From the NCBI RefSeq assembly GCF_004010195.1, contig NC_057718.1, positions 89,423,022 to 89,467,125 of the forward strand: a stretch of 44,104 nt of DNA, in the 5' to 3' direction. A program made the position numbers and the translations under genes. This DNA is from Chiloscyllium plagiosum. Its lineage: Eukaryota. The notes beneath the pieces are model-generated. The model was not told where the DNA came from and did not search any database. It worked only from the letters and a program-made list of their open reading frames with translations. This document shows, piece by piece, positions 2,459 to 43,164 of this stretch; position 1 is the first letter of the stretch; each line of letters starts with the position of its first letter.

Positions 2459-3943
2459 TAGAGTCATAGAGCCATAGACATGTACAGCATGGAAACCGAC
2501 CCTTGGATCCAACCCGTCCATGCCAACCAGATATCCCAACCCAATCTAGTCCCACCTGCCAGCACCCGGCCCATATCCCTCCAAACCCTTCCTATTCATA
2601 TACCCATCCAAATGCCTCTTAAATCTTGCAATTTTACCAGCCTCCACCACATCCTCTGGCAGCTCATTCCATACACGTACCACCCTCTGTGTGAAAAAGT
2701 TGTCCCATAGGTCTCTTTTATATCTTTCCCCTCTCACCCGAAACCTATGCCCTCTAGTTCTGGACTCCCCCACCCCAGGGAAAAGACTTTGTCTATTTAC
2801 CCTATCCATGCCCCTCTTAATTTTGTAAACCTCTATAAGGTCACCCCTCAGCCTCCGATGCTCCAGAGAAAACAGCCCCAGCCTGTTCAATCTCTCCCTA
2901 TAGCTCAAATCCTCCAACATCTTTGTAAATCTTTTCTGAATCCTTTCAAGTTTCACAACATCTTTCCGATAGGAAGGAGACCAGAATTGCACGCAATATT
3001 CCAACCGTGGTTTAACCAATGCCCTGTACAGCCACAACATGACATCCCAACTCCTGTACTCAATATTCTGACCAATAAATGAAAGCATACTAAACGCCTT
3101 CTTCACTATCCTATCTACCTGTGACTCCAGTTTCAAGGAGCTATGAACCTGCACTCCAAGGTCTCTTTGTTCAGCAACACTCCCCAGGACCTTACCATTA
3201 AGTGTGTAAGTCCTGCTAAGATTTGCTTTCCCAAAATGCAGCACCTCGCATATATCTGAATTAAACTCATCTGCTACTTCTCAGCCCATTGGCCCATCTG
3301 GTCAAGACCCTGTTGTAATCTGAGGTAATCTTCTTCGCTGTCCACTACACCTCCAATTTTGGTGTCATCTGCAAACTTACTAACTGTACCTCTTATGCTC
3401 GCATCCAAATCATTTATGTAAATGACAAAAAGTAGAGGGCCCAGCACCGATCCTTGTGGCACTCCACTGGTCACAGGCCTCCAGTCTGAACACCCTCTGT
3501 CTTCTATCTTTGAGCCAGTTCTGTATCCAAATGGCTCGTTCTCCCTGTATTCCATGAAATAACCTTGCTAATCAGTCTCCCATGGGGAACCTTGTCGAAC
3601 GCCTAACTGCAGTCCATATAGGAGAAAGTGAGGTCTGCAGATGCTGGAGATCAGAGCTGGAAATGTGTTGCTGGAAAAGCGCAGCAGGTCAGGCAGCATC
3701 TAGGGAACAGGAGAATCGACGTTTCGGGCATTAGCCCGAAAGCCTGAAGAAGGGCTAATGCCTGAAACGTCGATTCTCCTGTTCCCTAGATGCTGTCTGA
3801 CCTGCTGCGCTTTTCCAGCAACACATTTCCAGTGCAGTCCATATAGATCACATCTACCGCTCTGCCCTCATCAATCCTCTTTGTTACTTCCTCAAAAAAT
3901 TCAATCAAGTTTGTGAGAGATGATTTCCCACGCACAAAGCCAT
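2459..3943 (-). mobile_element. 5'-truncated CR1 (HER1-like) LINE, interrupted by a PLE mini-element
   Basis: [22 protein letters not shown]...KFADDTK RT motifs (ORF 3274..3555), C-terminal ORF 2546..3244 and a short-repeat tail near 2459-2480. Confidence 0.93.
3622..3832. mobile_element. Palindromic Penelope-like mini-element with hammerhead-like motif
   Basis: Inverted arms; TSD tgcagtccatatag at 3608-3621 and 3833-3846; CTGAAGA-A-GGGC-TAAT-GCCT-GAAACGTC at 3744-3771. Confidence 0.85.
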
Positions 3944-3944
3944 C

Positions 3945-4380
3945 TTAGGATGGTGAATAGTTTCAAGAAGGGAATGGCGGTTTTCCAAGTGCCAACTGCC
4001 CTTGCCGTTTGAGGTGAGGGGGGTCACGGATTTGGAAGGTGCTGTCAAACTCCTCAGTGTTTCCCAGTTAATGGTACACACTGCTGTCATTATGCATCGG
4101 TGTTGGTGCGAGGGAGTGCTGGAAGTGTTGGACGGCATGTCGGTCAAGTGGACTGCTTTGCCCTGGATGGTGTTGAAGTTCTTGATGGAGTTCATCCAGG
4201 CAAGTGGGGAGAATTCCATCACACTCCTCACAGATGCTGGACTGGCTTTGGGGAGTCAGGAGATGAGTTACTTGCTGCAAAATTTCTAGCCTCTGACCCG
4301 CTCTTGTAGACACTGTGTTAATAAAGTTGGTCCACTTCAGTTTCTGGTCAGCGATAATCCCACAGTGGGGGGTTCAGTGA
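3945..4380 (-). mobile_element. Older non-LTR retrotransposon RT C-terminal fragment (L2/CR1 group)
   Basis: Frameshifted RAGQRLEILQQVTHLLTPQS / RSVMEFSPLAWMN, typical of the LINE RT thumb region. Confidence 0.65.
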
Positions 4381-5471
4381 TGCGTGGGGCAAAGGCACCA
4401 GCACATTCAGCTGGGCCAAATGGCCTACTTCTGTGCTGTTAATTCTACCTAGCTATCACATGATAGCTGGGTAGAATTTTTAGATAAATTCTGATATTTC
4501 TCACACACAGAATTCATAATCTTCTTTTGTGTTGTGGTGTCCCATGCGCTTCTGAGGGGGAAAATATTTCATTTTAGGGTGATGGTCACTTTAAGTTTCT
4601 CTGAGATATTTCTTGTAAAACACCTTGCTGTCAGAAACCGATGAGGAGAGCAAGATGTTTGGGGGGTACACAGTAGAAAAAGGGTCCACCAAAGGCTGCT
4701 TTTCGGAATAAGTCGGTTCCTGGGTGCGATTCTGTCTTCGAGCAGTTTAATTTTAATTTAGGACAAATTGACTGCAGACCAATAAACATTCTGTTCCAGC
4801 AGAAGTCAGGTAAAATATTGAACAGTGGCTCAACATTTGTTATTTGCAGGACTCCACTAGGAAGTCTACAACAATATCACGATTAGAAGAGATTTGAAGG
4901 AAATTCTTGATCGGTTGTTACTGGACAACCCAAAAAAATGACAACTTTTAAATGAGTCTTTGAAACAGTAATCAGACCAAATCATTAATCTTCCAGCTTC
5001 TGAAAGGTATATATCAAATAGGTGTAGAAGAAAATTTAAAAAGTTTGTTTTAAAGTGTAAAGCAATTATATTAATTGTGCTTTTAATATCATTAAAGTAA
5101 CCAACTATGTAAGAAGGAGTAGTTATTATTATATACGTTCTTTGATTTTTATGTGGTAAGATTATTTTCATTTAAACTGTGAACCTTATGGCATTGCTCT
5201 TTCAATAAACACCTGGAATTTCAGATTCTGAAAAAAAACACTCATCATGTCACTGATTTTCACCAAGATCATGAAAAGTTTGAGAATCTAATCCAATTTC
5301 CTGGCACAAGTATGTGTCTCAGCCCTTGTCTGGTGTTAATCACACCCAGTTCTGTGGGAGCCGCACACACCCCTCTCACGCTTTCGAAAAGGAGAGCTGA
5401 CACATGGAGCGTTATGTCGAGCTCTCCAGCCTCCTGCTTGTCTACCTTCAGTAAAGCGTTGACAGGTTTAC

Positions 5472-5657
5472 CTTAGCTGCGTCTTGCAGGCTCTGAAGGC
5501 GGGTTCGCATGAGTTGCTGGAGCTCATCTGTCTGCTGGTGGAGGTTGGCCACGCGCTGAGACATTGCACCCGTCTGATGCACATCACTGACGCTGTCTAA
5601 CTTCTCACCCATGGCCTGCAGATCACTCTGGATTTCCTCCGATTCACGTAGGGTGGC
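5472..5657 (-). CDS. SYNE1: SYNE1 coding exon, 186 bp (ATLRESEEIQSDL...LQSLQDAAK)
   Basis: Acceptor tttccatttgcag| and donor AAG|gtaaac. Matches recalled human ...IKIRLQNLQDAAK. I did not find the next exon in 1..5471. Confidence 0.92.
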
Positions 5658-5727
5658 CTGCAAATGGAAATAAAGACCTGGGATCGATATAGAGCCTTAG
5701 ACATCTTGGAGCATCCAACAATCAACC

Positions 5728-6045
5728 AAGGAATCCCTACAGCGTGGAAGCAGGTAATTCGCCCATCGATTACACACCAATCCTCCGAACAGCATCCCAC
5801 CCAGATTCGCTTCCCCTACCTCATCCCTGCAACCCTACATTTCCCATAGCCAACCCACCTGGGCTGCACATCATTGAGCAACAGTCAATCCACCTAATCT
5901 AAACATCTCTGGACTGTGGGAGAGAACAGGAGCAGCCAGAGATGTGGGGAGAATGTGCAACCTCCAAACAGACAGTCACCCAAGGGTGGAATCCAACCTG
6001 GGTCCCCAGCACTGTGAGGTAGCAGGGCTAACCACTAAGCCACCC
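5728..6045 (-). mobile_element. HE1-type tRNA-derived V-SINE
   Basis: Homologous to the other copies in the window (A/B-box head ggtggcttagtggttag, V-domain core, HER1-like tail). Confidence 0.85.
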
Positions 6046-6547: not shown

Positions 6548-6576
6548 TAGAGAGCGAGAGAGAGAGAGAGAGAGAG
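6548..6576. repeat. (AG)n microsatellite
   Basis: Visible. Confidence 0.85.
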
Positions 6577-7163: not shown

Positions 7164-7199
7164 CTGATGAGGTTAAGAGGAGCAGCAGGTTAGATTAGA

Positions 7200-7612
7200 A
7201 CAGACACTACACACATACACATATACCAGAGCAACACAGAAACAGACAGACACCAACACAGCACAACCACCGACACAATACAGACAGCACCCAGACACTG
7301 ACACAATACAGATCCGCAACACAACAGACACAGACAGCACCCAGACACTGACCAACACAACAGACACAGACAGCACCCAGACACTGACACAATACAGACA
7401 CTGTAACACAACAGACACAGACAGCACCCAGACACTGACACAACACAGACACTGCAACACAACAGACACAGACAGCACCCAGACACTGACACAATACAGA
7501 CACTGCAACACAACAGACCAGACAGCACCCAGACAGACACAATACAGACACTGCAACACAACAGACCAGACAGCAACACAGATATTAAACAGCGACACAG
7601 ACACACAATACA
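7200..7612. repeat. CA-rich minisatellite, ~51-bp unit (UG-rich on the transcribed strand)
   Basis: Repeating caacacaacagacacagacagcacccagacactgacacaatacagacactg. Confidence 0.9.
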
Positions 7613-9934: not shown

Positions 9935-10478
9935 CAGAACAAAGAACAGCCCAGTGCAGGAATAGGCTCTTCATCCAACAAGACTGCACTGACGCATGAT
10001 GTCCTTTCGGAACTATAAACCTTTCGCCTCCACACGGTCCATATGCCTCTATTCCCTGCCTGTTCCTGTATCTGTCAGGATGCCTCTTAAACAGTGCTAT
10101 TGCATCTGACTCCACCACCTCCTCTAGCAGTGCATTTCAGGCACTTACCACCCTCTGTGTTAAAAAGAAAACATGCCTCTTACATCTCCTATAAACTTAC
10201 CCCCTTTTACCTAAAACCTATGTCCCCTGGGAAAAAGCTCCGACTATCTATCATATCCACGTCTCTCATAATTTTGTAAACTTCTTTCAGGTCACCCCTC
10301 AGCTTCTGACATTCAAGTCAAAACAACTCAATCTGTCCTCATAGCTAATACCCTCTAAAACAAGGCAACATCCTGGTAAACCTTTTCTGTACCTTCTCCA
10401 AAGCCTCCACATCCTTCAGGTAGTGTGGTGACCAGAACTGTACTCAATATTCCAAATGTAGCCTAGCTAAAGTTCTAG
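9935..10478 (-). mobile_element. CR1 LINE 3' fragment
   Basis: VESDAIALFKRHPDRYRNRQGIEAYG C-terminus; homologous to the other CR1 copies. Confidence 0.85.
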
Positions 10479-10769
10479 TTAGGCAGGACTTCAGCATCTT
10501 GAGGAATGGAGATCTAAGAAACTGGAGCAGGAGGAGGCCTCAAAACTGTTCCTGAATTCAATTAGATCTTGATCGATCTGGACTTCAACAATAACCTGGC
10601 TTGGTTCCTTATCTCTTTATTAACCTTACCGTTCAAAATTACATCAGTCCCAATTTTGAACATTTCATGTGGTTGAATTGATTGACTCAGCGGTAGTTCT
10701 GGATTTCCACTGCTCTGGACATGAAAAAGTACTTGCTAATGTCCACCCAGAATGACGCAGCTCCAACTG

Positions 10770-11083
10770 ATTAGATTAGATTAGATTCCCTACAGTGTGG
10801 AAACAGGCCCTTCAGCCCAACCAGTCCACACCAACGAGTCACCCACCCAGACCCATTTCCCTCTGACTAACGCCCCTACCACTATGGGCAATTTGGCATG
10901 GCCAATCCACCTGACCTGCACATCTTTGGACTGAGGGAGGAAACTGGAGCACCCGGAGGAAACCCGCACAGTCACAAGAAGAATGTGCAAACTCCACACA
11001 CACAGATGCCCGAGGCTGGAATCGAACCTGGGTCCCTGGTGCTGTGAGGCAGCAGTGCTAACCACTGAGCCACCATACCACCC
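10770..11083 (-). mobile_element. HE1-type V-SINE, full length
   Basis: Head ggtggctcagtggttagcactgctgcctcacagc, B box ggttcgattcc, (aatct)n tail. Confidence 0.92.
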
Positions 11084-11322
11084 TCCCACAAGAGGAAGGA
11101 ATTTCTATTTACCTAATCAAATATCATAAACACCTCAAGTGAACCTCTCTTAAACATCCACATTTAAGCCTAGACTATGCAACAATTGTGAACCCTTTTA
11201 GCTCCATTGCAGGGGAAAGACAGGCAGGAATTAAAAGCAATAATGTTCTGAAAACACAAATTGCATTGCGATGACGTGAAGGGGGCAGATTTTGAGCTGT
11301 GTGCACAGCTGACATTGCTTAC

Positions 11323-11505
11323 CTTGTTAAGTTTGGAGGCTCTGTACTCGGTCTCCTTAAAGACCTGCTGATACAGACTCGAGAGCTTGATCATGTCATC
11401 GGTCAGACACTTGCTCTGATGAGGGTTCTGCTCTGTGAAATCCTGTATTGTTGCGTCCAGTTCCACAAGTTTCACATTGCAGCTGTCCACCTTGTCCCAT
11501 AGTCT
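11323..11505 (-). CDS. SYNE1: SYNE1 coding exon, 183 bp (RLWDKVDSCNVKL...RASKLNK)
   Basis: Acceptor ggcttttgcag| and donor AAG|gtaagc. Matches recalled human CNSKLMELDAAVQKFLEQN...AENRLSKLNQ. Confidence 0.92.
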
Positions 11506-11576
11506 CTGCAAAAGCCAAATCACCTCACAATCAAACCTCCATGGCTCCCTCCCAGATTAAATTGGGATGTGTACAG

Positions 11577-12850
11577 AATACATAAATGATTTGGATGTGA
11601 GCATAAGAGGTAAAGTTAGTAAGTTTGCAGATGACACCAATAGTGGGCGGCACGGTGGTTAGCACTGCTGCCTCACAGCGCCAGAGACCTGGGTTCAATT
11701 CCCGCCTCAGGCGACTGACTGTGTGGAGTTTGCACATTCTCCCTGTGTCTGCGTGGGTTTCCTCTGGGTGCTCCGGTTTCCTCCCACAGTCCAAAAATGT
11801 GCAGGTCAGGTGAATTGACCATGCTAAATTGCCTGTAGTGTTAGGGGCAGGGGTAAAAATGTAGGGGAATGGGTCTGGGTGGGTTGCGCTTTGGCGGTTC
11901 GGTGTGGACTTGTTGGGCCGAAGGGCCTGTTTCCACACTGTAAGTAATCTAATCAATATTGGAGGTGTAATGGACAGTGAAGAAGGTTACCTCAGATTAC
12001 AACAGGAGCTTGATCAGATGGGCCAATGGGCTGAGAAGTGGCAGATGGAGTTTAATTCAGATAAATGCGAGGTGCCAAGTTTTGGGAAATCAAATCTTAT
12101 TAGGACTTATACCCTTAATGGTAAGGTCCTAGAGAGTGTTGCTGAACAAAGAGACCTTGGAGTGCAGGTTCATAGCTCCTTGAAAGTGGAGTCGCAGGTA
12201 GATAGGATAGAGAAGGCGGCGTTTAGTATGCTTTCCTTTATTGGTCAGAGTATTGAGTACAGGAGTTGGGAGGTCACGTTGTGGCTGTACAGGACATTGG
12301 TTAGGCCACTGTTGGAATATTGCGTGCAATTCTGTTCTGTTTCCTATCAGAAGGATGTTGCGAAACTTGAAAGGGTTCAGAAAAGATTTACAAGGATGTT
12401 GCCAGGTTTGGAGGATTTGAGCTATAGGGAGAGGCTGAACAGGCTAGGGCTGTTTTCCCTGGAGCGAAGGGTGAGGGGGTGACCTTATAGAGGTTTATAA
12501 TATCATGTGGGGCATGGATAGGATAAATAGACAAGGCATTTTCCCTGGGGTGGGGGAGTCCAGAACTAGAGTGCATACGTTTCAGGTGAGAGGAGAAAGA
12601 TATAAAAGACACCTAAGGGACAACGTTTTCACACAGAGGGTGGTACGTGTATGGAATGAGCTGCCAGAGGAAGTGGTGGAGGCTGGTACAATTATAGCAT
12701 TTAAAAGGCATCTGGATGGGTATATGAATGGGAAGGGTATGGAGGGATATGGGCCGGGTGTTGGCAGGAGGGACTAAATTGGGTTGAGATATTTGGTCGG
12801 CATGGACGGGTTGGACCGAAGGGTATGTTTCAGTGCTGTACATCTCGATG
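11577..12850 (+). mobile_element. 5'-truncated CR1 LINE, split by a SINE just after the FADDT motif
   Basis: INDLD...KFADDT at 11577-11640 resumes as IGGVMDSEEG at ~11958; ORFs 11904..12482 and 12505..12777. Confidence 0.92.
11643..11953 (+). mobile_element. HE1-type V-SINE nested in CR1
   Basis: Head gggcggcacggtggttagcactgc, tail taatctaatc, possible 5-bp TSD caata (11638-11642 and 11954-11958). Confidence 0.92.
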
Positions 12851-12955
12851 ACCAAATGACATATTGCCCAGGCTTTCTGTGTCTGCCATTGTCCATGTGG
12901 TAGTACTCTCTCCTGTCTGGTTCAGATACTTGTGGGTTCGGGTCTTACTCCAGAT

Positions 12956-13798
12956 CAGGTACATCGTTCTTTGAAAGTTGCATCACATATAGACAGAGTG
13001 GCAAAGAAGGAATTAAGCATGCTTGCCTTCATTGCCCAGAGCATTGAGTATAGGAGTTGGGAGATTAAGTTGTGGTTGTACAGGACACTGGCAGGACCAC
13101 TCCTGGAGTACTGTGTGCAGTTCCGATTGCCCTGCTATAGGAAGGATACTATTAAATTGGAGAGGGCACAGAAAGGATTTGCCAGGATGTTCCCGGAAAC
13201 GGAGGATTTGAGGAGAGGCTGGATAGGCTAGGACTTTTTTCACTGGAGCGTAGGAGGTCGAGGTGTGACTTTATAAAGGTTTATTAAACCATAAGGGGCA
13301 CAGATAAGGTGAATAGCAAAGGTCTTTTCCCTTGGGTGGGGGAGTCCAAAACTAGAGAGCACAGGTTTAAGGTGAGAAGGGCGAGATTTACAAGGACTTG
13401 AGGGGCAACATTTTCACAAAGGGTAGTGCATATATGGAATTAATTGCCAGAGGAAGTAGTAGATTCAGGTACAGTTACAACATTCAAAAGGCATTTGGAC
13501 AGGTTCATGAATAGAGGAGAACGTGAGGACTGCAGATGCTGGAGATCAGAGCTGAAAATGTGTTGCTGGAAAAGCGCTGCAGGTCAGGCAGCATCCAAGG
13601 AGCAGGAGAATCGACGTTTCCGGCATGAGCCCTTCTTCCGGAAGGATTTCCAGCAACACATTTTCAGGTTCATGAATAGGGAAGGTTTAGAGGGATATAG
13701 GCCAAAAGCTGGCAAATGCGATTAGTTTAGTTTGAGTAACTTGGTCGGCATGGATGTGTGGGACTGAGGGGTTTGCTTCCATGCTGTATGTTCTGTGA
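12956..13798 (+). mobile_element. CR1 LINE 3' fragment
   Basis: QVHRSLKVASHIDRV...LYRTLAGPLLEYCVQF...FKRHLDRFMN. Confidence 0.9.
13515..13664. mobile_element. PLE mini-element (full arm plus short inverted arm) inside CR1
   Basis: TSD caggttcatgaatag at 13500-13514 and 13665-13679; same family as 3622-3832. Confidence 0.85.
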
Positions 13799-14189
13799 CC
13801 TGGCTGACTTCTCTGCACGGGTCAGAGCAGTACTGCTCCACCACAGTGTCCACCTTGCAGTTGGAAGGTTTATTGAACTGATGGCTCGGTTCACCATCTC
13901 ACATTTAAGATCCAGTTACTTTGATGGAAAGCAGGGGAGTTCTTGCTGCTCTCCTGCCAGCGTTAATCACTCAACGAGATGCCACTTAAAAATAGATTAT
14001 CCAGTCATTATCTTGTAGGATCTTGCTGTACGCAAATTGGCTGTCGTGTTGCCCTCATTATAACAGGGCCAACATTTTTAAAAAGCCTTTCTTTGGCTGT
14101 AAACTGCTTTGGGGCACCCCGGGGTGTACTATTTCAAGTTCTTCCTTCTTTTAACCGTCCACTGTGAGTACATAGGGTATGTTTCAAAG

Positions 14190-14417
14190 TCAAAAAGTGT
14201 GGTGCTGGGGAAGCACACCGGTCAGGCAGCATCCAAGGAGCAGGAGAGTCAACGTTTCGACCATAAGCCCTTCATCAGTAACCATCACATTCCTAATGAA
14301 AGGCTTATGCTTGAAACGTCAACTTTCCTGCTCCTCGGATGTTGCCTGACCAGCTGTGCTTTTCCAGCACCACACTCTCGACTCTAATCTCCAGCATCTG
14401 CAGGCCTCACTTCTTCC
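14190..14417. mobile_element. Palindromic PLE mini-element
   Basis: TSD agggta(t/g)gtttcaaag at 14174-14189 and 14418-14433; inverted arms; CTGATGA...GAAACGT motif on minus at 14251-14278. Confidence 0.85.
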
Positions 14418-14892
14418 AGGGTAGGTTTCAAAGCTGGTTGGACCCTTAATTAACAGCCAGGAATCAGGCGTAGTACCAGACATTGCCTGTGGCATAGTTC
14501 AGAAGGATCGGGTCTACTCAGGGACTGGGTCATCAATAAAGAGCCAGGTCAGAGCCGGGAATTGGAACCTGTGGCTTAGCTAGAAGTAACACCAAGAGAG
14601 GATAGGGAGGACCATGTCTAACCAGGGAGTAGCAATCTACGTGGTGAGTTTTAACTGGACACTACTATTCTCGATATAAAAAAAGGATGATTCTGAAGGA
14701 AACGACTGAACAGCAGCAGCTCCTTCACCAAATTGTTAGCTTTTCTTCATTTTATGAGCTGGAATCTTTCTGGTGTCAGGATATGGAGGTTCAGACCGAA
14801 CAGAACAGGGATGAAACACTGGAATCATTTCCGGAACTTACTGAATGCTGCAGTGTCAGACCTTTTTATATGAATGATCTGGAGTGGACAAA

Positions 14893-18199: not shown

Positions 18200-18340
18200 A
18201 AAAACCTAAAGAACTGCAGATGCTGTATCTCAGAGACAAAAAACAGAAATCGCTGGAAAAGCTCGGCAGGTCTGGCAGCATCGGCGGAGAGAAATCACGG
18301 CTAACATTTCAGGTCGAGTGACTCTTCCTCAGAATTCTGA
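18200..18340 (-). mobile_element. PLE terminal fragment of a further family with a degenerate hammerhead motif (related relic at ~34355-34462)
   Basis: aactgcagatgctg...gctggaaaagctc.gcaggtctggcagcatc; minus strand CTGAGGA-A-GAGTC-ACTC-GACCT-GAAATGTTA at 18302-18332. Confidence 0.6.
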
Positions 18341-27354: not shown

Positions 27355-27429
27355 CTGCGGGGTAGAGAAATACCGGCAAAGTGAACGGGAGTAAACTAAA
27401 ACGTAATATATCAACACACCCATAACAAC

Positions 27430-28362: not shown

Positions 28363-28649
28363 TCATCTCAACTACTCCCTATGGCAGTGAGTTTTATATT
28401 TTCACTTCTCGAGGTAAAGAAGTCTCTTCTGAATTCCTTTTTGGATTTCTTGTTGACTGTCATCATATAGATGGCTTCTAGTTATGCTCAGCCACACAAG
28501 TGGAAATATCTCTGCAATCAACCTATGAAAACCTTTTATAATTTTCATCAGCTCTGTTAGGCCATCTGTCCTCCAGAGCCAGCTTTATTCCTTATCAATA
28601 AATTAGTCCAATTCTGTTCACCTTTACTTGACAGATAAAAGTCACAGTC

Positions 28650-28854
28650 GAGAGAGTGTGAGCGCTGGAAAAGCACAGCAGGTCAGGCAGCATCTGAGGA
28701 GCAGGAGGGTCGATGTTTCAGGCAAAAGCCCTTCATCAGGAATGACGCTCAATGCCAACTCTCCTGCTCCTCGGATGCTGCCTGACCTGCGGTGCTTTTC
28801 CAGCACCACACTCTCGACTCTAACCTCCAGCATCTGCAGTCCTCACCTTCGCCT
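28650..28854. mobile_element. Palindromic PLE mini-element
   Basis: TSD agataaaagtcacagtc at 28633-28649 and 28855-28871; hammerhead-like motif on minus at 28712-28739. Confidence 0.85.
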
Positions 28855-29314
28855 AGATAAAAGTCACAGTCATCCCAGAGAACTATCCAGCTGCTCTCGA
28901 GAAAGAGAGATGACTGATGGAGAGATTAACCTTGCCTCGGGTAAGGGGAACGGTTGTCAATGCAGAGAAGGGATGGAAGAGTCGCTCCAAAGACTAAATA
29001 TAAAGTATATTATAAGCTTGTTATTTCAGTGATTTATTATGTTGCTGAACAAAGTGTAGGTGTGTTAGTTATTAATGCCACTTAGTTATTGGTGAGTTAT
29101 TTATTGATGTAAGCTAGTTATTGACATAAGTGAGTTAATATTGCTTATTGTTGAGCACTGGTTATCGCAGTGGTCTAGTTATTGAAGTTAATGGGTCATT
29201 GAAATGAGCCAGTTATTGCTGTGATCCACTTATCAATGGAAGTTAGATACCAATGTGAGCAAGTCATTTAATGAGCTAGTTAATGACGTGAGGTAGTTAT
29301 TGATGTGAGTTACT

Positions 29315-29608
29315 CTGCCTTAGAGTGGTTGGAAGGTGGGAGGGGCGGGGGCTTGCTGGGTCTGTATTGTCTGCACTTTTGTATGTAACAGTACTGTGTA
29401 ATGTACAGCTGTCTTTGCTGTTGTCTCTTTATATCTTTGTGAAACTGGGATTTGAGGTTTGTCCTCATGCCCCTGTAAACTGTCTGAATGGTAGGGTTTT
29501 GGGCCAATTGCTCCTCTCCCTTATAAAATTGCTGTCTCTTGTATGCAGCTGTAAATGTAACTGTTTGTTTGTTGTAAACTGTTTTTGTAATTTGTTTAAT
29601 AAAATAAA
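29315..29608 (+). mobile_element. 5'-truncated retroposed insert (L1/Tx1-like 3' UTR or mRNA 3' end)
   Basis: 16-bp TSD attgatgtgagttact (29299-29314 and 29609-29624); T-rich body ending aataaaataaa. Confidence 0.65.
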
Positions 29609-29709
29609 ATTGATGTGAGTTACTTATTGTCATGGGCTAGTTAATTTTGTCGACTGGTTACTGACATGACATGATGTGAGCTAGTTATAGATGTGAGCAA
29701 GATTGGCAA

Positions 29710-29823
29710 TTGCCCGAAACGTCGATTTTCCTGCCCCTCGGATGCTGCCTGACCTGCTGGGCTTTTCCAGAACCACTCTGATCTTGATTCTGATTTCCAG
29801 CATCTGCAGTCCTCACTTTTGCC
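29710..29823 (+). mobile_element. Single-arm PLE terminal fragment
   Basis: gcccgaaacgtcgatt...gcagtcctcactttt, same family as 28650-28854. Confidence 0.8.
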
Positions 29824-29942
29824 GCATAGATGTGAGAAGGTGAATCTTACCCACTGGTTAGTGATGTGAGCTAGTTATAGATGTGAGCTGGGTAGTGATG
29901 TGAGCTAATCAACATTGTTAGCTTATCTCTTGCCGTACTGAC

Positions 29943-30625: not shown

Positions 30626-31050
30626 CCTCTCAGCCTTCTCTGTTAGGCCGGGGTGGGGAGGGCCTGGATTGGAGAGGGGACTGACAGCGGCCCACAGAGG
30701 AACGGGGACGGCCCGGAGAGAAATGGGGACGGGCCGGAGAGGAATGGGGACGGTACGGAGAGGAATGGGGACGGGCCCTCTCAGCCTTCTCTGTTAGGCC
30801 GGGGTGGGGAGGGCCTGGATTGGAGAGGGGACTGACAGCGGCCCACAGAGGAACGGGGACAGGCTGGAGAGGAATGGGGACAGGCCAGAGAGGAATGGGG
30901 ACGGGCCGGAGAGGAATGGGGGCGACCTGGAGAGGAATGGGGATGGGCCGGAGAGGAATGGGGACGGGCCGGAGAGGAATGGGGATGGTCCGGAGAGGAA
31001 TGGGAACGGGTTGGAGAGGAATGGGGACGGCCCGGAGAGGAATGGGGGAC
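30626..31050. repeat. 151-bp tandem duplication with a G-rich 21-bp minisatellite (gagaggaatggggacgggccg)
   Basis: Unit start cctctcagccttctctgttaggccgggg at 30626 and 30777; about 4 versus about 10 internal repeats. Confidence 0.9.
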
Positions 31051-31862
31051 AGTGGTCAGTGGGCCCGGAACGAAGGTGGCCCTGGTTGGTCAGGCCACAT
31101 AGAAGCCCTTATAGAAAGACTGGAATGTCTATCGTTTCAGCTTTATTTCTTATCTTTCCAACTTATTCAATGTATGTCTGTAATGTCGAGTAACGTTTTT
31201 TTTTCTATTTGTTTTGTACCTGGGTACTTTGGAGCTAAGCCGGTACTGTGTGTTGGTGAGATGCCACACCTTTACTGTACTCCTGTTGTTCTGTAACCTG
31301 AGTACACGTGACAATAAACCTCATTCGACATTCTTCTCTTGAGAAGAATAGCTTCAGTTGTTTTAATTTCCAATCTACCGTCATTCTTAAGAAACAGGTC
31401 TCGTGCTGCAGTGGGTAGTGCCCCTATCTCTGAGCAGAAGCTCCAGGTTCAGATCCCACCCCAAGACCTGATGGCCATAGAAGGAAGGTACACTCATAAT
31501 GTGGGCAAGCAATTCGAGTATAGACTTGGAATTCCTCCCAACACACATGAATGGGAGGTGGTTTAAGAGTGGGGAGGATTCCCGAATCAGCCACATTTGG
31601 AGCAAGAATTTAGGAGCCTCTGACATCACATGTTCCAAAATACACTGTAACGTCCTGAGTAACACACCAACTTTCTTATATATTTTTCTTTCATCTCGCC
31701 CGATACCTCCTTGTCGTTTTTTTGTAATACAGGGAAAGGAACTGGGCTCAGGAGTCGGGGTCCTCGCAGATCACCATGCCATCCAAGTGTGTACAAATGA
31801 GGAGGAGAAATAGATAACTCAGCTCTTCAAATCTGTTCCTCCGTTCAATAAGATCAGTGCTG

Positions 31863-33228
31863 TTCAAAGTTTGGGAGAAGATTTGTAGCTCGGGTGCTCG
31901 TTGTTGTGGTTCTGTTCGCCAAGCTGGGAATTTGTGTTGCAGACGTTTCGTCCCCTGTCTAGGTGACATCCTCAGTGCTTGGGAGCCTCCTGTGAAGCGC
32001 TTCTGTGGTGTTTCCTCCGGCATTTGTAGTGGTTTGAATCTGCCAGTTCCAACTGTCCGTTGCAGTGATCGGTATATTGGGTCCAGGTCGATGTGCTTAT
32101 TGATTGAATCTGTGGATGAGTGCCATGCCTCTAGGGATTCCCTGGCTGTTCTCTGTTTGGCTTGTCCTATAATGGTAGTGTTGTCCCAATCAAATTCATG
32201 TTGCTTGTCGTCTGCGTGTGTGGCTACTAAGGATAGCTGGTCGTGTCGTTTCGTGGCTAGTTGATGTTCATGGATGCGGATCGTTAGCTGTCTTCCTGTT
32301 TGTCCTATAGTGTTTTGTACAATCCTTGCATGGGATTTTGTACACTACGTTGGTTTTGCTCATGCTGGGTATCGGTCCTTCGTTCTGGTGAGTTGTTGTC
32401 TGAGAGTGGCTGTTGGTTTGTGTGCTGTTATGAGTCCTAGTGGTCACAGTAGTCTGGCTGTCAGTTCAGAAATGCTCTTGATGTATGGTAATGTGGCTAG
32501 TCCTTTGGGTTGTGGCGTGAGTATCCGTTTTTGTTGATGAAATTGCGTGAGTATCCGTTTTTGGCGAATACCTTGTACAGGTGTTCCTCTTCCTCTTTTT
32601 GCAGTTCTGGTGTACTGCAGTGTGTTGTGGCCCTTTTGAATCGTGTCTTGATGCAACTTCTTTTGTGTGTGTTGGGGTGGTTGCTTTCGTAGTTCAGGAC
32701 TTGGTCTGTGTGTGTGGCTTTCCTGTATACCTTTGTGGTGAATTCTCCGTTTGGTGTTCTCTGTACCATCACATGTAGGAATGGGAGTTGGTTGTCCTTT
32801 TCTTCCTCTCTAGTGAATCAGATTCCTGTGAGTTAGACAGCTAACTGTAAGACAGCTAACGATCCGCATCCATGAACACCCCCGACACGACCGGCTATCC
32901 TTAGTAGCCACACACGCAGATGACAAGCAACATGAATTCGACTGGGACAACATTACTATTATAGGACAAGCCAACAGGGAACAGCCAGGGAATTCCTAGA
33001 GGCATGGCATTCATCCACAGATTCAATCAATAAGCACATCGACCTGGACCCAATATACCGGCCACTGCAACGGACAGCTGGAACTGACAACCGGAAGCGG
33101 CTACAAATGCCGGAGGGAACATCACAGAAGCACTTCACAGGAGGCTCCCAAGCACTGAGGATGTCACCTAGACAGGGGACGAAATGTCTGCAACACATAT
33201 TCCCAGCTCGGTGAACAGAACCACAACA
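31863..33228 (-). mobile_element. Penelope-like retroelement: 5'-truncated copy on minus (RT C-terminus plus GIY-YIG endonuclease) joined to an inverted 3' copy (32849-33228, plus)
   Basis: Minus-strand FTREEEKDNQLPFL...TKVYRKATHTDQVLNYESNHP...KNGY and TLPYIKSISE; NVVYKIPCKDCTKHY(I)GQTGRQLTIRIHEH is a frameshifted GIY-YIG motif; 31901-32292 is the reverse complement of 32849-33228. Confidence 0.9.
31939..31978 (-). ncRNA. Minimal type I hammerhead ribozyme motif of the PLE (second copy on plus at 33152-33191)
   Basis: GCA-CUGAGGA-U-GUCACCU-AGAC-AGGGGAC-GAA-ACGU-C-UGC: stem I GCA/UGC, conserved core, stem II, palindromic ACGU stem III, GUC cleavage triplet. Activity not shown. Confidence 0.72.
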
Positions 33229-33346
33229 GATCCATGCTGCTCTGTTTGCGTTCAAAATTCCACATTCCCTTCCACCCGCGCTAACAATCAATCTCCCTGC
33301 CAAACAAAAATCTATCCACCTCCACCTTAAAAATATTTAATGACCT

Positions 33347-36350: not shown

Positions 36351-36390
36351 GCTCCGCTAACTTGCCCACACTAGCTCAATGACGTTGCAG

Positions 36391-37278
36391 TCGAGAGTGT
36401 GGTGCTGGGAAAGCACAGCAGGTCAGGCAGTATCCGGGCAGCAGGTGAATCGACGTTTTGGGCAAAAGCCCTTCATCTGGAATGAGGTTTGTGGGTCGGG
36501 GCTGAGAAATGAAAGGNNNNNNNNNNNNNNNNNNNNNNNNNGGTCCGGAGGGCAGTGCTGAGTTGGAGGCTTGGGACTGGGATAATGTGGGGGGAGGGGA
36601 AATGAGGAAGCTGTTAAAATCCACATTTATCCCGTGTGGTTGCAGGGTCCCAAGGCCGAGTATGAGGCGTTCCTCCTCCAGGCTCGGGTGGTAACGGTTT
36701 GGCAGTGGAAGAGGCCCAGGACCTGCATGGCCTTGACGGAGCTGGAGGGGGAGTTGAAGTGTTCAGCCACGGGGCAGTGGGGTTGGTGGGTGCGGGTGTC
36801 CCAGAGATGTTCTCTGAAACAATCCGCAAGAAGGTGCCCTGTCTCCCCAATGGAGAGGAGACCACATCGGGTGCAATGGATACAGTAGATGACCAATGTG
36901 GTCTCCTCTACATCGGGAAGACAGGACGCCTTCTTGTGGATTTCAACAGCTTCCTCTTTTACCCTGCCCCCACATTATCCCAGTCCCAAGCCTCCAACTC
37001 AGCATGGCCCTCCTCATCTGTCCATCACTGCCCCCTCTGACCTATCACTTTCTCCCTCATCTTCATCAACCTATCGCTTTCCCAGCTACCTTCCTCCAAA
37101 CCCCCCCGCCCTCCCGTTTATCTCTCAGCCTGACCCACAAGCCTCATCCCTGATGAAGAGCTTTTGCCTGAAACGTTGATTCTCCTGCTCCTCGGATGCT
37201 GCCTGACCTGCTGTGCTTTTCCAGTATCACACACTCTCGACTCTGATCTCCAGCATCTGCAGTCCTCACTTTTTCTTC
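36391..37278. mobile_element. Inverted Penelope-like element with a GIY-YIG remnant; long form of the mini-element family
   Basis: 16-bp TSD ctcaatgac(g/a)ttgcag (36375-36390 and 37279-37294); minus VIYCIHCTRCGLLSIGETGHLLADCFREHL; plus CGLLYIGKTGRLL; hammerhead-like motifs at ~36452-36479 (minus, mutated core) and 37150-37177 (plus). Confidence 0.88.
36517..36541. other. Assembly gap (25 N)
   Basis: Run of n. Confidence 0.99.
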
Positions 37279-37304
37279 CTCAATGACATTGCAGCCTTAT
37301 ATTA

Positions 37305-38615: not shown

Positions 38616-38872
38616 CTGGTTGGGGAGTGTGGAACAGAAATTATTGTCAACTCTCGCCACAAAAAACATTCACTACTTGGCCAACAGCGTTCTTAACCTG
38701 CATTGTCTCGTCTTAATCTGCATCAAGGAAAATGATCAGCTCTTCTGTCACTTCTGAGTCATATTTCTCACAAAAGTTATGACTCCCACTTTGCTGCTAC
38801 TGAGGGCCAATAGCCTTGAGAAGAATTTTCACTGACTGGAAGGGCAGACTGGAGACTGGACTATAATACCCA

Positions 38873-38876
38873 CAAG

Positions 38877-38909
<33 letters not shown>

Positions 38910-39280
38910 GACAAAGAGAGACAGAGAGACAGAGAGAGAGAGAGAGACAGAGAGGGAGAGACAAAGAGAGANNNNNNNNNNNNNNNNNNNNNNNNNNNNN
39001 NNNNNNNNNNNNNACAGTGAGACAGAGACAGAGACAGAGAGAGACAGAGAGAGACAGAGAGACAGAGAGACAGAGACAGAGACAGAGACAGAGACAGAGA
39101 GAGACAAAGACAGAGACAGACAGAGAGAAATAGACAGGGATAAGGAGAGAAAGAGAGTGTGTGTTGTAATGCTGGTGAGTGTGTGTGTGTGACAGAGAGA
39201 AGGACAGAGAGAGTGTATGTTGTAATGCTGGGGAGTGAGAGAGAGACAGAGAGAGAGAGTGTGTGTTGTAATGCTGGTGA
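38873..39280. repeat. (AG)/(AGAC) microsatellite with a 42-N gap (38972-39013), followed by three gtgttgtaatgctgg units
   Basis: Visible. Confidence 0.9.
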
Positions 39281-39791
39281 GTGGGTTGCAATACCTTTCA
39301 ATGTCGCTGGGTCAAAATCCCAGAATTTCCTCCCTAAGGGCATTGTGGGTCAACCCACAGCAGGTGGACTGCAGCGGTTTAAGAAGGCAGATCCCCCCCA
39401 CCTTCTCAAGGGGACAACAGGGAACTGGCAATAAATGCTGGGCCCAGCCAGCAACGCCCACATCCCACAAACAAATTTTAAAAATCAGACAAAAGGCTGT
39501 AATGCTGCCGAGAGGGGCCATCAGACTGGACAGTGACCTGTATTGCCAGGGAGAAAGCGATAAGACTAACGGAAGGGCCCTAATACTGGAGTAGAAGCTA
39601 TAATATTCAGGGGAGACTTGTAATATCGTACAGAGGACTGTCAAACCAAAGAGAAAGCTTTTAGACATGGGAGACAGCTCTAAATGAGGTGAAAAAAGAG
39701 AGAAAGAAAGAGCTAGCAATGAAGAGGTATAAGGTGTAATATCAGAGAAAGAGAAACAGAGACATTACTGATCCCAAGAACATTAGTATCA

Positions 39792-40025
39792 AATAATACA
39801 ATGACAATCCCACTATGCCATCATCCCAACAATGATCAAAGGTTAACGAGAGATGGTTTGGCTTCCTATTACCTCTCAGTTTATAACCAACTGACAGCCC
39901 AATGGTACCTAGGGGCAGACCAATAATACAATGACAATCCCACTATGCCATCATCCCAACAATGATCAAAGGTTAACGAGAGATGGTTTGGCTTCCTATT
40001 ACCTCACAGTTTATAACCAACTGAC
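39792..40025. repeat. 104-bp direct duplication (39792-39895 and 39922-40025), one mismatch
   Basis: Visible; period 130 bp. Confidence 0.95.
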
Positions 40026-40029
40026 TAAC

Positions 40030-42190
40030 CTTCTTGCTGCTCAGGGTTTCCTGGACTTCAGCCTCGAGTCTGGAAAGTTCCAGCAGATTGCTCTCCACCT
40101 CTGGAGGCATCAGATCCCTGGACTCGGAGTATTTCTCCTTCTCTTTACTGCTCAATGCCACCATGATCCGAAGACTCGACTGCACCTCTTCCTCGAGGAT
40201 CTGGGATTTCCGGATCTCCTCCTGGACACCCTGGAGATTGACATCCAGGTTCAAGTCGGCACTGAGGTCTCCCTTCACCTGCTGCAGCCAATCCAGAGAG
40301 TGTTGGATTTCCGTCTGGAAGTCAATCGTTTGAACCAGTCTGCTCTCACACTCCATTATCCTGGCGCTGATGGTTCCTTGCGCTGACTGAAGCTCCTCCT
40401 TCCAAGCTTGAAGCTGCTGGCTCCTTGCCTCGCGGGCCCCAGTGTCCAGCTCCGGTGAAAACTGCTCCACTTGCTCGATCAGCCCCTTCAGGAGGGAGCT
40501 GACCTCCTGCACGGTCCCCGCCAGAGCGTGGTAGTTCTTCAGCCTCTCCTCCACTGACAGGGTTTCCTCGTTGACCCGGACGAGCTCTTCGGCCAGGGCG
40601 CGAAGCCGGGCCTCCAGCCTGAGCGAGCAGGCCTCGTGCTCCCGGTAGGCCTCGGCGGTGTCTCCCAGCAGCGCCAGCTGCCGCTCAGCCTGTCGCCTCA
40701 GGCGGCTGTGGAGGCCGGACAGACCCGCCACCTCGTCGGGCATCCAGGGCTGGCCGGAGCTCCGGAAGGTCTCCTTCCTCTGGTTCAGGTCATCCACTGC
40801 CTTGCCCAGGCCCGTCACCTCATCGAGGAGGGCCCGGCAGTCACTGCAGGCTGACTGGGCCTCCTCCGACGAGAGGCTGAGGCGGGCCTTGCTCACCCGG
40901 ACTAGCTGCTCCTCCAGCTCACCCAGGGCCTTGCCAGTCAGGCTGACCAGCGAGGCGTACTCCTGGCGGGCCGCCATGGCCTCCTGGATCTTCTCGGACT
41001 TCTCCTTGGCCAGGCCGACGATGCTGTTGAACTGGCGGGGCAGGGCGTTCAGCTTCTCGTCCAGGAAGGAGTGGTCGGCCTCGCTGAGGGAGGGCAGCAG
41101 CTCACGGCCGGCCCTCTGCACCAGCAGCAGGAGGTTCTCGTGCTCGGCGGACTGTTCCAGAACCTGCCGGTACCTGGCGAGCTGCGAGGACAGCTCCGCG
41201 TCGCTGCCCATCAGGCTGACCTGCGGGAAGGTCACCACGTCGGCCTGCTTCATCCACTGGCACACCCGGTCCAGGTCAGCCTTGAAGTACTTCCTGGAGA
41301 GCAGCACCTTCTCCAGTTCCTGCAGCCGCTGGGCGCCCTCCTGCAAGGCCGAGTCGTAGGTGGCCTGCAGCTCCTGGAGCTGGGCCATGATCTCGGATGT
41401 CTCCTCCTCCGTCGCCTCCTTGGCCAGCTCCCTGCCCTGAGCCCACAGAGCCGCCACGTCCGTCTGGTACTCCTTCAGGCGGCTGCCGACGCTCTTGCAG
41501 CTGCGGATCTGCTTGCCCACCTCAGCCGGCATGAGGGCCGCAGGCTCCTTGGAGGTGGCCACCAACCGGTTCTGCTGGACCCAGCTGCTGGCCAGGCCGA
41601 CGGCCATGAGGAACTGGGTGCGGTCCGACAGGGCCTGGCTCAGGTACTTCCTGCGCTGGCCCACCGCCTCGTGCAGGGAGCCCATCCTCCCGTGCAGCGC
41701 GCTCAGGGCCCTCTGCAGCTGCTGCCTCTCGTCCAGGCCCAGCTGGGCCAAGATCCTCTCGGCCTCCTCCGTCAGCGCCCCATGGGCCAGCTCCTGCGAC
41801 TCCAGCTCGTTGCAGACGGCGATGTGGTCCGGCAGCAGGGTCTGGGCCAGCTCGGCCGGCGGGCTGCACCTCAGGGCTTCGCCGAAGAGCTGGGCCTGCG
41901 CTTCGGCCCACTCCAGCAGGTCGTCCAGCCGGGCCTGGCACTGGCTCAGCTCCTCCAGGACCCGGGCGGACAGCTGGATCTTCTTCTCGATCAGCCCCTC
42001 CAGCTGCACCCACTGTCTCTCCAGGTGACTGCTCTGCTCCTTGATCAGCTCCTTGTCTTCGGGGTCCAGGCGGTCCATCAGCATCTGCTTCTGCTCCTTC
42101 AGGTCGTCCAGGACAAACCTCTGGGCCTGCACCTCACCGGCCAGCTTCCTCAGAGCTTCCAAATGCTCGGCCGTGCTCTCGGCATCGGTC
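40030..42190 (-). CDS. SYNE1: Nesprin-1 (SYNE1) large internal coding exon, 2161 bp, spectrin-repeat rod
   Basis: Acceptor ttttctttctggcag|G at 42190 and donor AAG|gttagt at 40030. Translation (TDAESTAEHLEALRKLA...KEQSSHLERQWVQLE...LSRKYFKADLDRVCQWMKQADVVTFP...EKLNALPRQFN...EEVQSSLRIMVALSSKEKEK) matches human nesprin-1 as recalled (TDAESAVEHLEALKKLA...KQADIVTFPE...EEVQSSLRIMNALS). Phase 2 to phase 0. Confidence 0.95.
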
Positions 42191-42234
42191 CTGCCAGAAA
42201 GAAAACATCATCCTGGGTGAGAACGTGCGAAAGG

Positions 42235-42635
42235 AACACAGGAAACAGCCATTCGGCCCATTGAGCCAGTCAAAGTCATGCTCTGTCATCTCAATGCTAC
42301 ACTCGTCCTCTGCCCCCACACCCCTTGATGCATTTAGCATTGAGACGGTCACTTCCTTCTCTCACAACTTAACCTCCACGGCCTCCTGTGGTTAAGAATT
42401 CAGTAGGTTTATTAGCCACTAAGTGGAGACATTCTTCCTCAACCCAACCCAAAATGGCCTGCTCTGAACCCTGACCCTGAGACCCCTTGGTCTACAGAGC
42501 CCCTCTGAAGCAGACTGACCCAGCTCTGTCAGGATCTGATACACTTCAATGTGCATCTCCCTCTCATTCTTCTGAACTGTGGTAGATAAGAGGCCCAACT
42601 GACCCCACTCTCCCTTGTACAGCAATCCCAGGGAT
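42235..42635 (-). mobile_element. Degraded CR1 3' fragment
   Basis: aggaacacaggaaacagccattcggccc tail; MHIEVYQILTELG. Confidence 0.6.
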
Positions 42636-42638
42636 CAG

Positions 42639-42820
42639 ATTGGTGATTGGAAAGCTCAGCCGGTCAGGAAGCACATCCGAGGAGCAGGAGAATTGACAGG
42701 AATGATGAAGAGCCTATGCTCAATTCTCCAGCTCCTCGGATGCTGCCTGACCTGCTGTGCTTTTCCAGCACCACACTCTCGACTCTGATCCGCAGCATCT
42801 GCAGTCCTCACTTTCTCCCA
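42639..42820. mobile_element. Degenerate palindromic PLE mini-element
   Basis: Inverted arms of the same family; degenerate TSD aat(c/t)ccag(g/a)gatcag at 42624-42638 and 42824-42838. Confidence 0.75.
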
Positions 42821-43164
42821 GTTAATTCCAGAGATCAGTCCCGAGAAACAGTGATGATGGTACCTCCCGGGATATCTCTGTGTCCCGGGATCATGTTTCA
42901 CAGCGGGATCTCTTTGCCTTCCTGGAGCAGCTGCTGTGACTCCCAAGTGATGGGTTAGATCTCTCGGGGCTGAGGGAAGGGGGTTAGGTAAGCAAGAGCT
43001 GGCAATAGGAACATGTCACAAACCTCTCTCACGGCAAGTGGACAGACCCTGTCACGTCAGGGACAGGGCTGCTACAGGTACACAGAGAGATACCAGGCAG
43101 ACAACAGTCAGACAGACTGACTGAGAGAGAGACTGAAAGAAACAGATGACCGGGCAGAGCAATG

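Follow-up and report, generated by a model that had tools for sequence, protein, structure and literature searches.

A window of 44,104 nucleotides of the Chiloscyllium plagiosum genome (NC_057718.1) carries several short palindromic insertions built from one terminal sequence, and the question is whether these form a hairpin family that amplifies itself or are fragments left by another mobile element. The six insertions put forward in the original prediction were all present in place as head-to-head pairs of one terminus: five small inserts of 150-228 bp (E1 to E5) and one long form of 888 bp (L). They are very probably separate 5'-truncated insertion products of a Penelope-like element (PLE), probably of the Neptune/Nematis type, and not a self-amplifying hairpin family.

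The inserts are flanked by target duplications, for which a size of roughly 12-17 bp had been given; this held for five of the six inserts (14-17 bp), the decayed duplication of E5 being about 18 bp long. Of 600 pairs of randomly chosen positions (scores: median 5, 95th percentile 8, maximum 15), 0.7% equalled the duplications of E1, E3 and L (score 14), 0.5% that of E2 (score 15), none that of E4 (score 17) and 3% the decayed one of E5 (score 9). The expected enrichment beyond chance was thus observed, together with an empty site for E2. This insert sits inside another repeat, of which three uninterrupted copies in the window span the site without it, and the target is present once in the two copies whose sequence was inspected.

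Positions within the arms are given in the numbering of the tailed arm of L (37xxx), which was used as reference. As predicted (about 33-36 nt), one arm of each pair falls short of the true end by a near-constant length, which was measured as a tail of 34-37 nt; the tailless arm ends at 37237-37242 in five of the six inserts and about 5 nt further in in E5. The predicted microhomology between the tailless junction and the duplication amounts to 2-4 nt and is clear in five of the six. An inverted pseudo-LTR (pLTR) copy plus a one-ended tail of the 30-40-nt type was found in all six inserts, so that the "fixed asymmetric architecture" holds as a description. It is not special to these inserts, as it recurs in a second family and is the published PLE tail pattern (PMC8557442, PMC3846280), which has been traced in vitro to two reverse transcriptase (RT) start sites (PMC11167929). 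The tailless arm of L contains a 25-N gap at 36517-36541, with about 100 nt missing beside it; from the tailed arm of L, some 200 nt of the endonuclease region are absent near 36934.

Table. Features of the terminal-repeat family in the window
Feature	Position	Strand	Remarks
E1 insert	3622-3832		
E1 target duplication	left 3608-3621, right 3833-3846		14 bp, exact
E1 tailed arm	3622-3737	-	5' end in hammerhead helix II; subfamily A
E1 tailless arm	3743-3832	+	97% identity to partner over shared core
E1 tailless arm, minimal hammerhead core	3744-3771	+	only fully intact one in window
E2 insert	13515-13664		
E2 target duplication	left 13500-13514, right 13665-13679		15 bp, exact
E2 tailed arm	13515-13641	-	subfamily A; 5' end at front of hammerhead core
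E2 tailless arm	13646-13664	+	only ~21 nt
E3 insert	14190-14417		
E3 target duplication	left 14174-14189, right 14418-14433		16 bp, 1 mismatch
E3 tailless arm	14190-14278	-	subfamily B
E3 tailed arm	14285-14417	+	
E4 insert	28650-28854		
E4 target duplication	left 28633-28649, right 28855-28871		17 bp, exact; last 4 nt common to arm
E4 tailless arm	28650-28749	-	decayed hammerhead core inside
E4 tailed arm	28753-28854	+	start few nt upstream of predicted cleavage site
S6, single tailed arm	29700-29825	+	13-bp duplication (1 mismatch), inside 17-nt tandem array
L insert (long form)	36391-37278		
L target duplication	left 36375-36390, right 37279-37294		16 bp, 1 mismatch
L tailless arm	36391-36894	-	endonuclease remnant, 3' UTR, hammerhead region
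L GIY-YIG endonuclease remnant, frameshifted	36630-36893	-	64% identity over 88 aa to P0001, E 5e-30
L tailed arm	36893-37278	+	starts ~24 nt 3' of partner's 5' end
L tailed arm, decayed minimal hammerhead core	37150-37177	+	predicted cut after 37177
L tail, on one arm only	37243-37278	+	34-37 nt across family
E5 insert	42639-42819		
E5 target duplication, decayed	about 42621-42638 / 42820-42838		~18 bp
E5 tailless arm	42639-42706	-	decayed; hammerhead core deleted
E5 tailed arm	42704-42819	+	~8 nt deletion in hammerhead core

The arms of E1 are 97% alike, compared with 71-92% to other arms, and the loop of helix II is the same within E1, within E3 and within L, partner arms thus sharing subfamily marks. 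Partner arms of subfamily B are 0.79-0.89 alike, against up to 0.95 between different inserts; as these partners are no closer than arms of different inserts, a common template is well shown only for E1. An excess of substitutions in the tailless arms (32/251 vs 13/252 sites, p 0.003) drops to 19/188 vs 11/189 (p 0.13) when E5 is left out.

The predicted tie to a PLE with a GIY-YIG endonuclease was borne out by L, whose remnant matches P0001, a bamboo-shark RT-endonuclease protein with an RT motif upstream of the endonuclease; longer relatives carry both PF00078 and PF01541. The Pfam GIY-YIG match of P0001 itself was sub-threshold (E 0.0046), and a Pfam scan of two window fragments gave no GIY-YIG match, the L fragment also being without RT sequence. 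The Neptune clade is marked, as is Nematis, by a cysteine motif resembling a Zn finger between RT and endonuclease; linker cysteines occur in P0001, P0008 and P0013 (the linker falls outside the window fragment), and the parent is probably a PLE of this type, as judged by the cysteine linker of the relatives. A translated pLTR was sought at the N-termini of 78 longer relatives and none was recognised; the sole shark protein is a partial model.

Further copies in the window had been overlooked: the single arm S6, a diverged relative of the arm at about 18200-18335, and a second PLE family at 31866-33227, which has the same inverted-plus-tail build with coding sequence inside. The 5' ends of its partner arms lie about 510 nt apart, and a general rule of coupled arm 5' ends was dropped for this reason.

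For a genome-wide view, four of the 24 listed public sequencing runs (X1, X11, X15 and X21) were compared with a single arm; the figures come from the 24 of 1,320 result rows and 15 of 248 joints shown. In each of two runs, more than 100,000 contigs shared one pair of outer ends, and their centres varied widely. Among the rows shown, X1 had 1,892 loose ends behind 37272 and 1,321 + 958 behind 37224/37232, where the consensus becomes random at about 37242. Two 3' end classes were found in all four runs, X11, X15 and X21 repeating the pattern of X1, so that the outer arm endpoints are fixed, as foreseen, and not scattered. The 11 opposite-strand joints shown have different centres, with 1-6 contigs each (the joints of X1 are undercounted). 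Those at 37230 and 37171, loose ends included, were set aside as clipping where the reference has private differences. Full-length endonuclease-positive PLEs form partial tandems with direct pLTRs; the joints seen in this orientation were those of the short 124-nt unit, in 9 and 8 contigs. Depth on the last 130 nt was about 100-fold above that at the endonuclease end (summed depth 20.4 million vs 0.21 million in X1, 2,766 vs 25 in X21), in a profile skewed by differences peculiar to the reference arm and by related sequences that match in the terminus only; in X21 the depth climbs from 37 to 555 over 37130-37155. Scans by pattern gave no loci in viral contigs and none in prokaryote genomes, and 17 metagenome loci, whose match spans only 19-27 nt, were discarded as chance.

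The inserts had also been described as hammerhead-bearing, which is true of some arms. A strict minimal-hammerhead scan returned one intact motif in the whole window (0 in 200 shuffles), that is, in one of 13 family arms, and a relaxed scan matched four of the 13; the second arm of E2 has no hammerhead. Rfam gave no hammerhead and four matches at E<=1, all sub-threshold microRNA hairpins, and their reading as microRNA precursors was rejected as a by-product of the palindromes; E1 and E4 are long predicted hairpins (folding z -23.7 and -13.2). The 5' ends of the arms cluster where the hammerhead core begins, about 30 nt before the scissile bond is reached. In six of the 11 arms of the minis the start lies at 37140-37154, ahead of the core, which indicates copying from uncleaved RNA through the whole fold. 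None begins with the base that follows the scissile bond, and the two arms (in E4 and E5) that were said to start at the GUC cleavage site both retain bases 5' of the scissile bond. No pile-ups of RNA starts or ends were listed in one poly(A) single-cell run, which has low power for cleavage or circular RNA. What we take to be an initiator-like word at 37144-37150 and, presumably, a splice-acceptor-like tract ending at 37128 are weak leads.

The formation route that we prefer, with moderate confidence, is a staggered double nick in which both strands prime short cDNAs on uncleaved RNA, followed by joining through microhomology. The GIY-YIG domain would nick both target strands 13-18 bp apart, as the duplications suggest; for an anole element, nicking and extension of both strands have been demonstrated in vitro (PMC11167929). 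Each 3'-OH would then pair over 2-4 nt with the element RNA and prime reverse transcription, and two internal start sites about 35 nt apart would yield one tailed and one tailless arm with their 3' ends outward. The anole element has two RT start sites in vitro, the tail being the gap between them (PMC11167929). Nearly all cDNAs would be short, ending at or before the wall observed at the hammerhead front edge, probably because synthesis begins at the start sites within the upstream pseudo-LTR and ends with the template, at the RNA 5' end. The cDNA ends would finally be joined by microhomology or short fillers, with help from the short inverted repeats that the hammerhead helices provide, and such repair would give each insert its own centre, as the junctions display. 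The hammerhead would act as a passenger and a source of microhomology, with cleavage not required. The very unequal arms of E2 (about 127 and 21 nt) and of the second family fit independent cDNA lengths.

The main rival to this two-primer model is fold-back, or self-priming: a target-primed cDNA would bend back on itself at a short inverted repeat and serve as template for the second arm, which would then be cut or joined some 35 nt before the end. We consider this possible but rather unlikely; here too each insert would be a PLE product of its own, and the difference would concern only how the second arm arises. The arms of L, each more than 500 nt before deletions, start within about 24 nt of each other, which is rare under independent truncation and easy under fold-back, and arm starts are within about 10 nt in E1, E3 and E5. 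The centres overlap the hammerhead helices, that of E1 resembling a switch inside the helix II palindrome (a second point against two primers), and palindromes at inverted junctions have been interpreted as self-priming (PMC3846280). However, the arm starts are separated by about 70 nt in E2 and by about 510 nt in the second family, and which arm is longer varies: the tailless one in E1, E4, E5 and L, the tailed one in E2 and E3. Similar lengths of mini arms are also explained by a shared 5' wall, and the tail length equals the spacing of the two RT start sites in vitro (PMC11167929).

Two other explanations concern the centre itself. That a non-autonomous palindromic master (a hairpin "retro-MITE") is transcribed and copied whole by the PLE enzyme would suit the uniform size, the duplications and the very high copy number; in a rotifer, pLTRs alone are enough for mobilisation in trans (PMC3846280), and a few joints with summed depths of 36-103, against about 4-12 for single pieces, imply that some centres are multi-copy. 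Yet the six window copies, from two subfamilies, have six different centres, the best-supported joint among the 15 shown of 248 (those of X1 being undercounted) reaches a depth of 103, compared with hundreds of thousands to millions at the same positions, and the long form and the second family share the build with coding sequence inside. With asymmetric termini and no dominant shared centre in window copies or among the public joints shown, both this reading, which we regard as very improbable, and that of a DNA-transposon MITE were rejected, and the independent formation proposed as the other option was upheld. It is also improbable, if slightly less so, that the ribozyme sets the centre, either by self-cleavage that makes an RNA 5' end or by a folded hammerhead that stalls the RT. 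Continuous homology does begin within a few nt of the cleavage site in three arms (the tailed one of E4 and the two of E5), two arms start in helix II, and two of the joints shown involve 37181. Against this stand the mini arms that begin upstream of the core, the bases retained 5' of the scissile bond and the largest class of 5' loose ends among the rows shown, which lies before 37149 with random consensus; truncation was therefore placed at the upstream edge of the core and not at the cleavage site. Anole cleavage mutants insert normally, with no RNA ends at the site (PMC11167929), and single minimal hammerheads were without cleavage in vitro (PMC4209133).

The inserts add no new kind of element, as their architecture is already described for PLEs. 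Endonuclease-positive PLEs (Craig et al. 2021, PMC8557442; Arkhipova et al. 2013, PMC3846280) share the 5' truncation, the adjacent inverted truncated copy, the 30-40-bp tail at one end only, the target duplications and the palindromic inverted junctions. In contrast to these, most shark units consist of two terminal stubs only, at very high copy number, and the duplications are 14-18 bp long compared with 8-10 bp in the rotifer cases. Poseidon_Ac of the green anole (Frangieh et al. 2024, PMC11167929) likewise has two fixed 3' ends that bracket the tail and a minimal hammerhead upstream of them, whose cleavage is dispensable for insertion; the shark family probably differs in having a cysteine linker of the Neptune/Nematis type and is known here from sequence. 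The minimal hammerheads of PMC4209133, a study in which sharks are unnamed, have one additional base ahead of helix II, open that helix with a G-C pair and carry a palindromic CG where helix III would stand. The shark core agrees in all three, whereas its helix I has only 2-3 pairs and a single arm in 13 is intact. Dual motifs 100-700 bp apart on opposite strands in Schistosoma were ascribed there to truncated PLEs. Non-LTR retrozymes (Cervera and de la Pena 2020, PMC7229834; Li, Clavereau and Pollet 2026, bioRxiv 10.64898/2026.07.22.740005), are also non-coding, hammerhead-bearing and pLTR-related, and occur in one chondrichthyan. They are head-to-tail tandem arrays whose units each carry a type I hammerhead, whereas all pairs in the window are head-to-head, with tail and duplication and no tandem copy, and a retrozyme identity was rejected.

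The value of the family lies in its material, as very many duplication-bounded PLE stubs are present in one genome and the route to the inverted arm can be tested by counting alone. Stub counting could also show why copies stop at the hammerhead front; both steps were left unsettled by the 2024 in vitro study. In annotation, such hairpins should be labelled as PLE fragments and not as MITEs, microRNA precursors or retrozymes. We tentatively suggest that the shark element may mostly copy its own leader: its RT would engage the internal start sites of the upstream pLTR and run off the RNA just ahead of the hammerhead, with entry into the coding region about 100 times rarer. The genome would in this way fill with 130-nt stubs and hairpins, whose ends would mark in vivo where the transcript starts and where the RT has its two start sites. 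Remobilisation of some stubs as SINE-like monomers is conceivable, and small-RNA silencing of the parent may draw on the hairpins.

All six inserts of the original prediction, five mini inserts (E1 to E5) and one long form (L), were confirmed in the window at the predicted coordinates, and each is an inverted pair of one terminus (6/6), with the 5' ends facing inward and the 3' ends outward. The inserts are real, well bounded and abundant. One arm of each pair carries a terminal tail of 34-37 nt. In the numbering of the L right arm, which is used for all arm positions, the tailless arms stop at 37237-37242 in five of the six inserts, the E5 arm ending about 5 nt further in. The near-constant short end of the second arm was thus upheld, as was the microhomology with the target-site duplication (2-4 nt, clear in 5/6 inserts). 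The duplications were scored against 600 random position pairs (median 5, 95th percentile 8): 0.7% of these pairs reached the score of E1, E3 and L, 0.5% that of E2, 3% that of the decayed E5 and none that of E4.

Penelope-like element (PLE) inserts and relatives in the window
Feature	Position	Strand	Target-site duplication	Remarks
E1, mini insert	3622-3832		14 bp	
E2, mini insert	13515-13664		15 bp	
E3, mini insert	14190-14417		16 bp, 1 mismatch	
E4, mini insert	28650-28854		17 bp	
E5, mini insert	42639-42819		about 18 bp, decayed	
L, long form	36391-37278		16 bp, 1 mismatch	
S6, single tailed arm of the insert family	29700-29825		13 bp	inside 17-nt tandem array
Second PLE family, same build	31866-33227		31851-31865 / 33228-33242, 15 bp, decayed	endonuclease and RT-end remnants; hammerhead on both arms
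Second family, tailed arm	31866 to about 32815	-		endonuclease and RT-end remnants
Second family, tailless arm	32843-33228			89% over 399 nt
Second family, hammerhead core	31975	-		
Second family, hammerhead core	33155	+		
Diverged relative	about 18200-18335	-	none detectable	54-67% to other arms; longer helix II

The tailless arm of E2 is only about 21 nt, which corrects the earlier description. The host of E2 is another repeat, three other window copies of which cross the insertion site uninterrupted, the target being single in the two copies inspected. This host belongs to one of several dispersed repeat families (D3-D6, D8, D11, D14-D19; 1165-3424, 10020-13788, 10774-35349), probably LINE/SINE fragments. 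Tandem arrays with 17-nt, 21-nt or dinucleotide-type units (7239-7583, 29093-29927, 30626-31050, 38833-39281, 43360-43622) and N gaps (36517-36541, 38972-39013) were also observed. A weak match (E 5e-4, 24 aa) at 11869-11940 (+) to the N-terminus of shark protein model P0006 is probably a repeat absorbed into the gene model. The inserts fall into two subfamilies, E1/E2 and E3/E4/E5/L. The partner arms of E1 are 97% alike (71-92% to other arms), and those of the older subfamily are 0.79-0.89 alike, not closer than arms from different inserts. The tailless arms of E3, E4, E5 and L were richer in substitutions than their tailed partners (32/251 vs 13/252 sites), an excess mostly from E5 and not significant without it. 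The few bases at the left end of S6 could be the leftover of a tailless arm. The second family has a tail of about 36 nt, and its motifs appear to be of Poseidon type.

The predicted tie to a GIY-YIG PLE was borne out by L and its relatives. In the L left arm lies a GIY-YIG remnant with a frameshift (36893-36630, minus strand); its best match was a Chiloscyllium punctatum protein (74% over a 74-aa query; 64% over 88 aa by tblastn), and the host is read as shark-like from this match. The matched protein combines an RT motif with a cysteine linker and with a Pfam GIY-YIG match that stays below threshold; most of 78 longer relatives have RT domains. The RT-endonuclease linker motif is described as a mark of Neptune and Nematis in PMC8557442, and the linker in the matched protein suggests a likeness to these groups. 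The L right arm begins in the same coding region as the left arm, about 24 nt further 3', with about 200 nt lost. Since both arms start in endonuclease coding sequence, L is a head-to-head join of two 5'-truncated PLE 3' ends, of which the minis are shorter examples. The family may already be catalogued in Repbase/Dfam.

The hammerhead content of the arms was sustained only in part: one intact minimal motif was present (3744-3771), but the intact motif was absent from 12 of 13 arms in the strict scan, which gave no match in 200 shuffles. A relaxed scan matched 4/13 arms, and an Rfam search of the window returned no hammerhead. Further relaxed core matches beyond the known arms, at 11416 (+) and 35671 (+), may be chance or belong to other families. 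On the L right arm, the reference hammerhead core starts at 37150 with the predicted cut after 37177. For the 11 mini arms (five pairs plus S6), six start at 37140-37154, two in helix II (37160-37164), two align from 37179-37181 and one (E2) from about 37218. The 5' wall, where arm 5' ends pile up, lies at the front edge of the hammerhead core and not at the predicted cut, and the proposal that the ribozyme cut fixes the centre or truncation was not borne out. Both arms said to begin at the GUC cleavage site still hold nucleotides from the 5' side of the scissile bond, and the E5 centre contains pieces of the upstream core (both judged by eye). Arms reaching the wall would have been copied from uncleaved RNA through the whole fold, which argues against RT stalling on it. 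The wall may mark the 5' end of the element RNA, where an RT that had started within the upstream pseudo-LTR would run off. Near the wall, upstream of the core, lie a splice-acceptor-like pyrimidine tract ending in CAG (37117-37128) and, directly upstream, an initiator-like word (37144-37150). In Drosophila Penelope, an intron ends at helix I (PMC4209133) and an internal promoter is reported (PMC2377424).

Four of 24 public sequencing runs were aligned to the L right arm (36935-37300) at 80% likeness, with matches from 117,363 of 21.6 million contigs (X1), 103,682 of 38.5 million contigs (X11), 10,003 of 1.8 million contigs (X15) and 3,813 of 13.0 million raw reads (X21). Among the 24 rows listed of 1,320 on loose ends in the four runs, the largest groups in X1 were 1,892 behind 37272 (the tailed end), 1,321 behind 37224 plus 958 behind 37232 (the tailless end, the consensus matching the element up to about 37242 and then random), and 1,042 in front of 37149, whose consensus was random; X11, X15 and X21 agreed. 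Arm endpoints thus cluster in all four runs rather than scattering at random. The last 130 nt were covered about 100-fold more deeply than the endonuclease end (X1, 20.4 million vs 0.21 million; X21, 2,766 vs 25), and depth rose in X21 bins from 37117 to 37194 (13, 37, 555, 1,215, 1,818, 2,499), these depths being distorted by private differences of the reference arm and not equal to copy numbers.

Of the two readings in the original prediction, a non-autonomous hairpin and independent products, the latter, which it favoured, stood: the inserts form independently. Among the 15 of 248 joints shown, with X1 incompletely counted, there was no dominant shared hairpin centre, and 11 switched to the opposite strand, no two of them at the same position; each of the 11 was supported by 1-6 contigs, and its summed depth did not exceed 103. 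A minor amplified hairpin may exist among the copies, as near-symmetric centres may escape detection and the X1 count is incomplete. Head-to-tail joints of short units, 37272 to 37149 (9, 8 and 1 contigs) and 37272 to 37188 (5 and 2 contigs), were also among those shown and would represent small partial tandems or retrozyme-like dimers at other sites of the sampled genomes.

We lean slightly towards a two-primer route to the paired arms, in which both nicked target strands would each prime cDNA on element RNA; on staggered nicks this would give the orientation, tail asymmetry and duplication of these inserts. According to PMC11167929, the anole enzyme nicks both strands and extends each one, has two start sites bracketing the tail and does not depend on hammerhead cleavage, the cleavage site showing no RNA ends. 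Two antisense cDNA ends would pair only where the RNA carries inverted repeats, which fits centres within the hammerhead helices. Fold-back, in which one cDNA self-primes the second arm using the same microhomologies, is rather unlikely; self-priming has been proposed for palindromic inverted PLE junctions (PMC3846280) and the L arm starts suit it, being about 24 nt apart, but those of E2 lie about 70 nt apart and those of the second family about 510 nt. One coupled long form (L) and one uncoupled (31866-33227) are insufficient to decide the route.

A literature search covering few subscription papers turned up no report of PLE stubs in sharks and none of a 5' wall at the hammerhead. Published accounts describe a neighbouring inverted 5'-truncated copy and a tail of 30-40 bp that is often confined to one end (PMC8557442), inverted pseudo-LTRs whose duplications measure 8-10 bp and whose tail is 31 bp, with palindromic junctions (PMC3846280), minimal hammerheads and pairs of motifs that lie on opposite strands at a distance of 100-700 bp (PMC4209133), and inverted pseudo-LTRs and short 3' extensions among the features that curation routinely records (PMC8969392). 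Like the PLEs of PMC8557442, the inserts here are inverted 5'-truncated pairs with the tail on one arm. They add another case of an already described architecture, and their tail asymmetry is the PLE tail.
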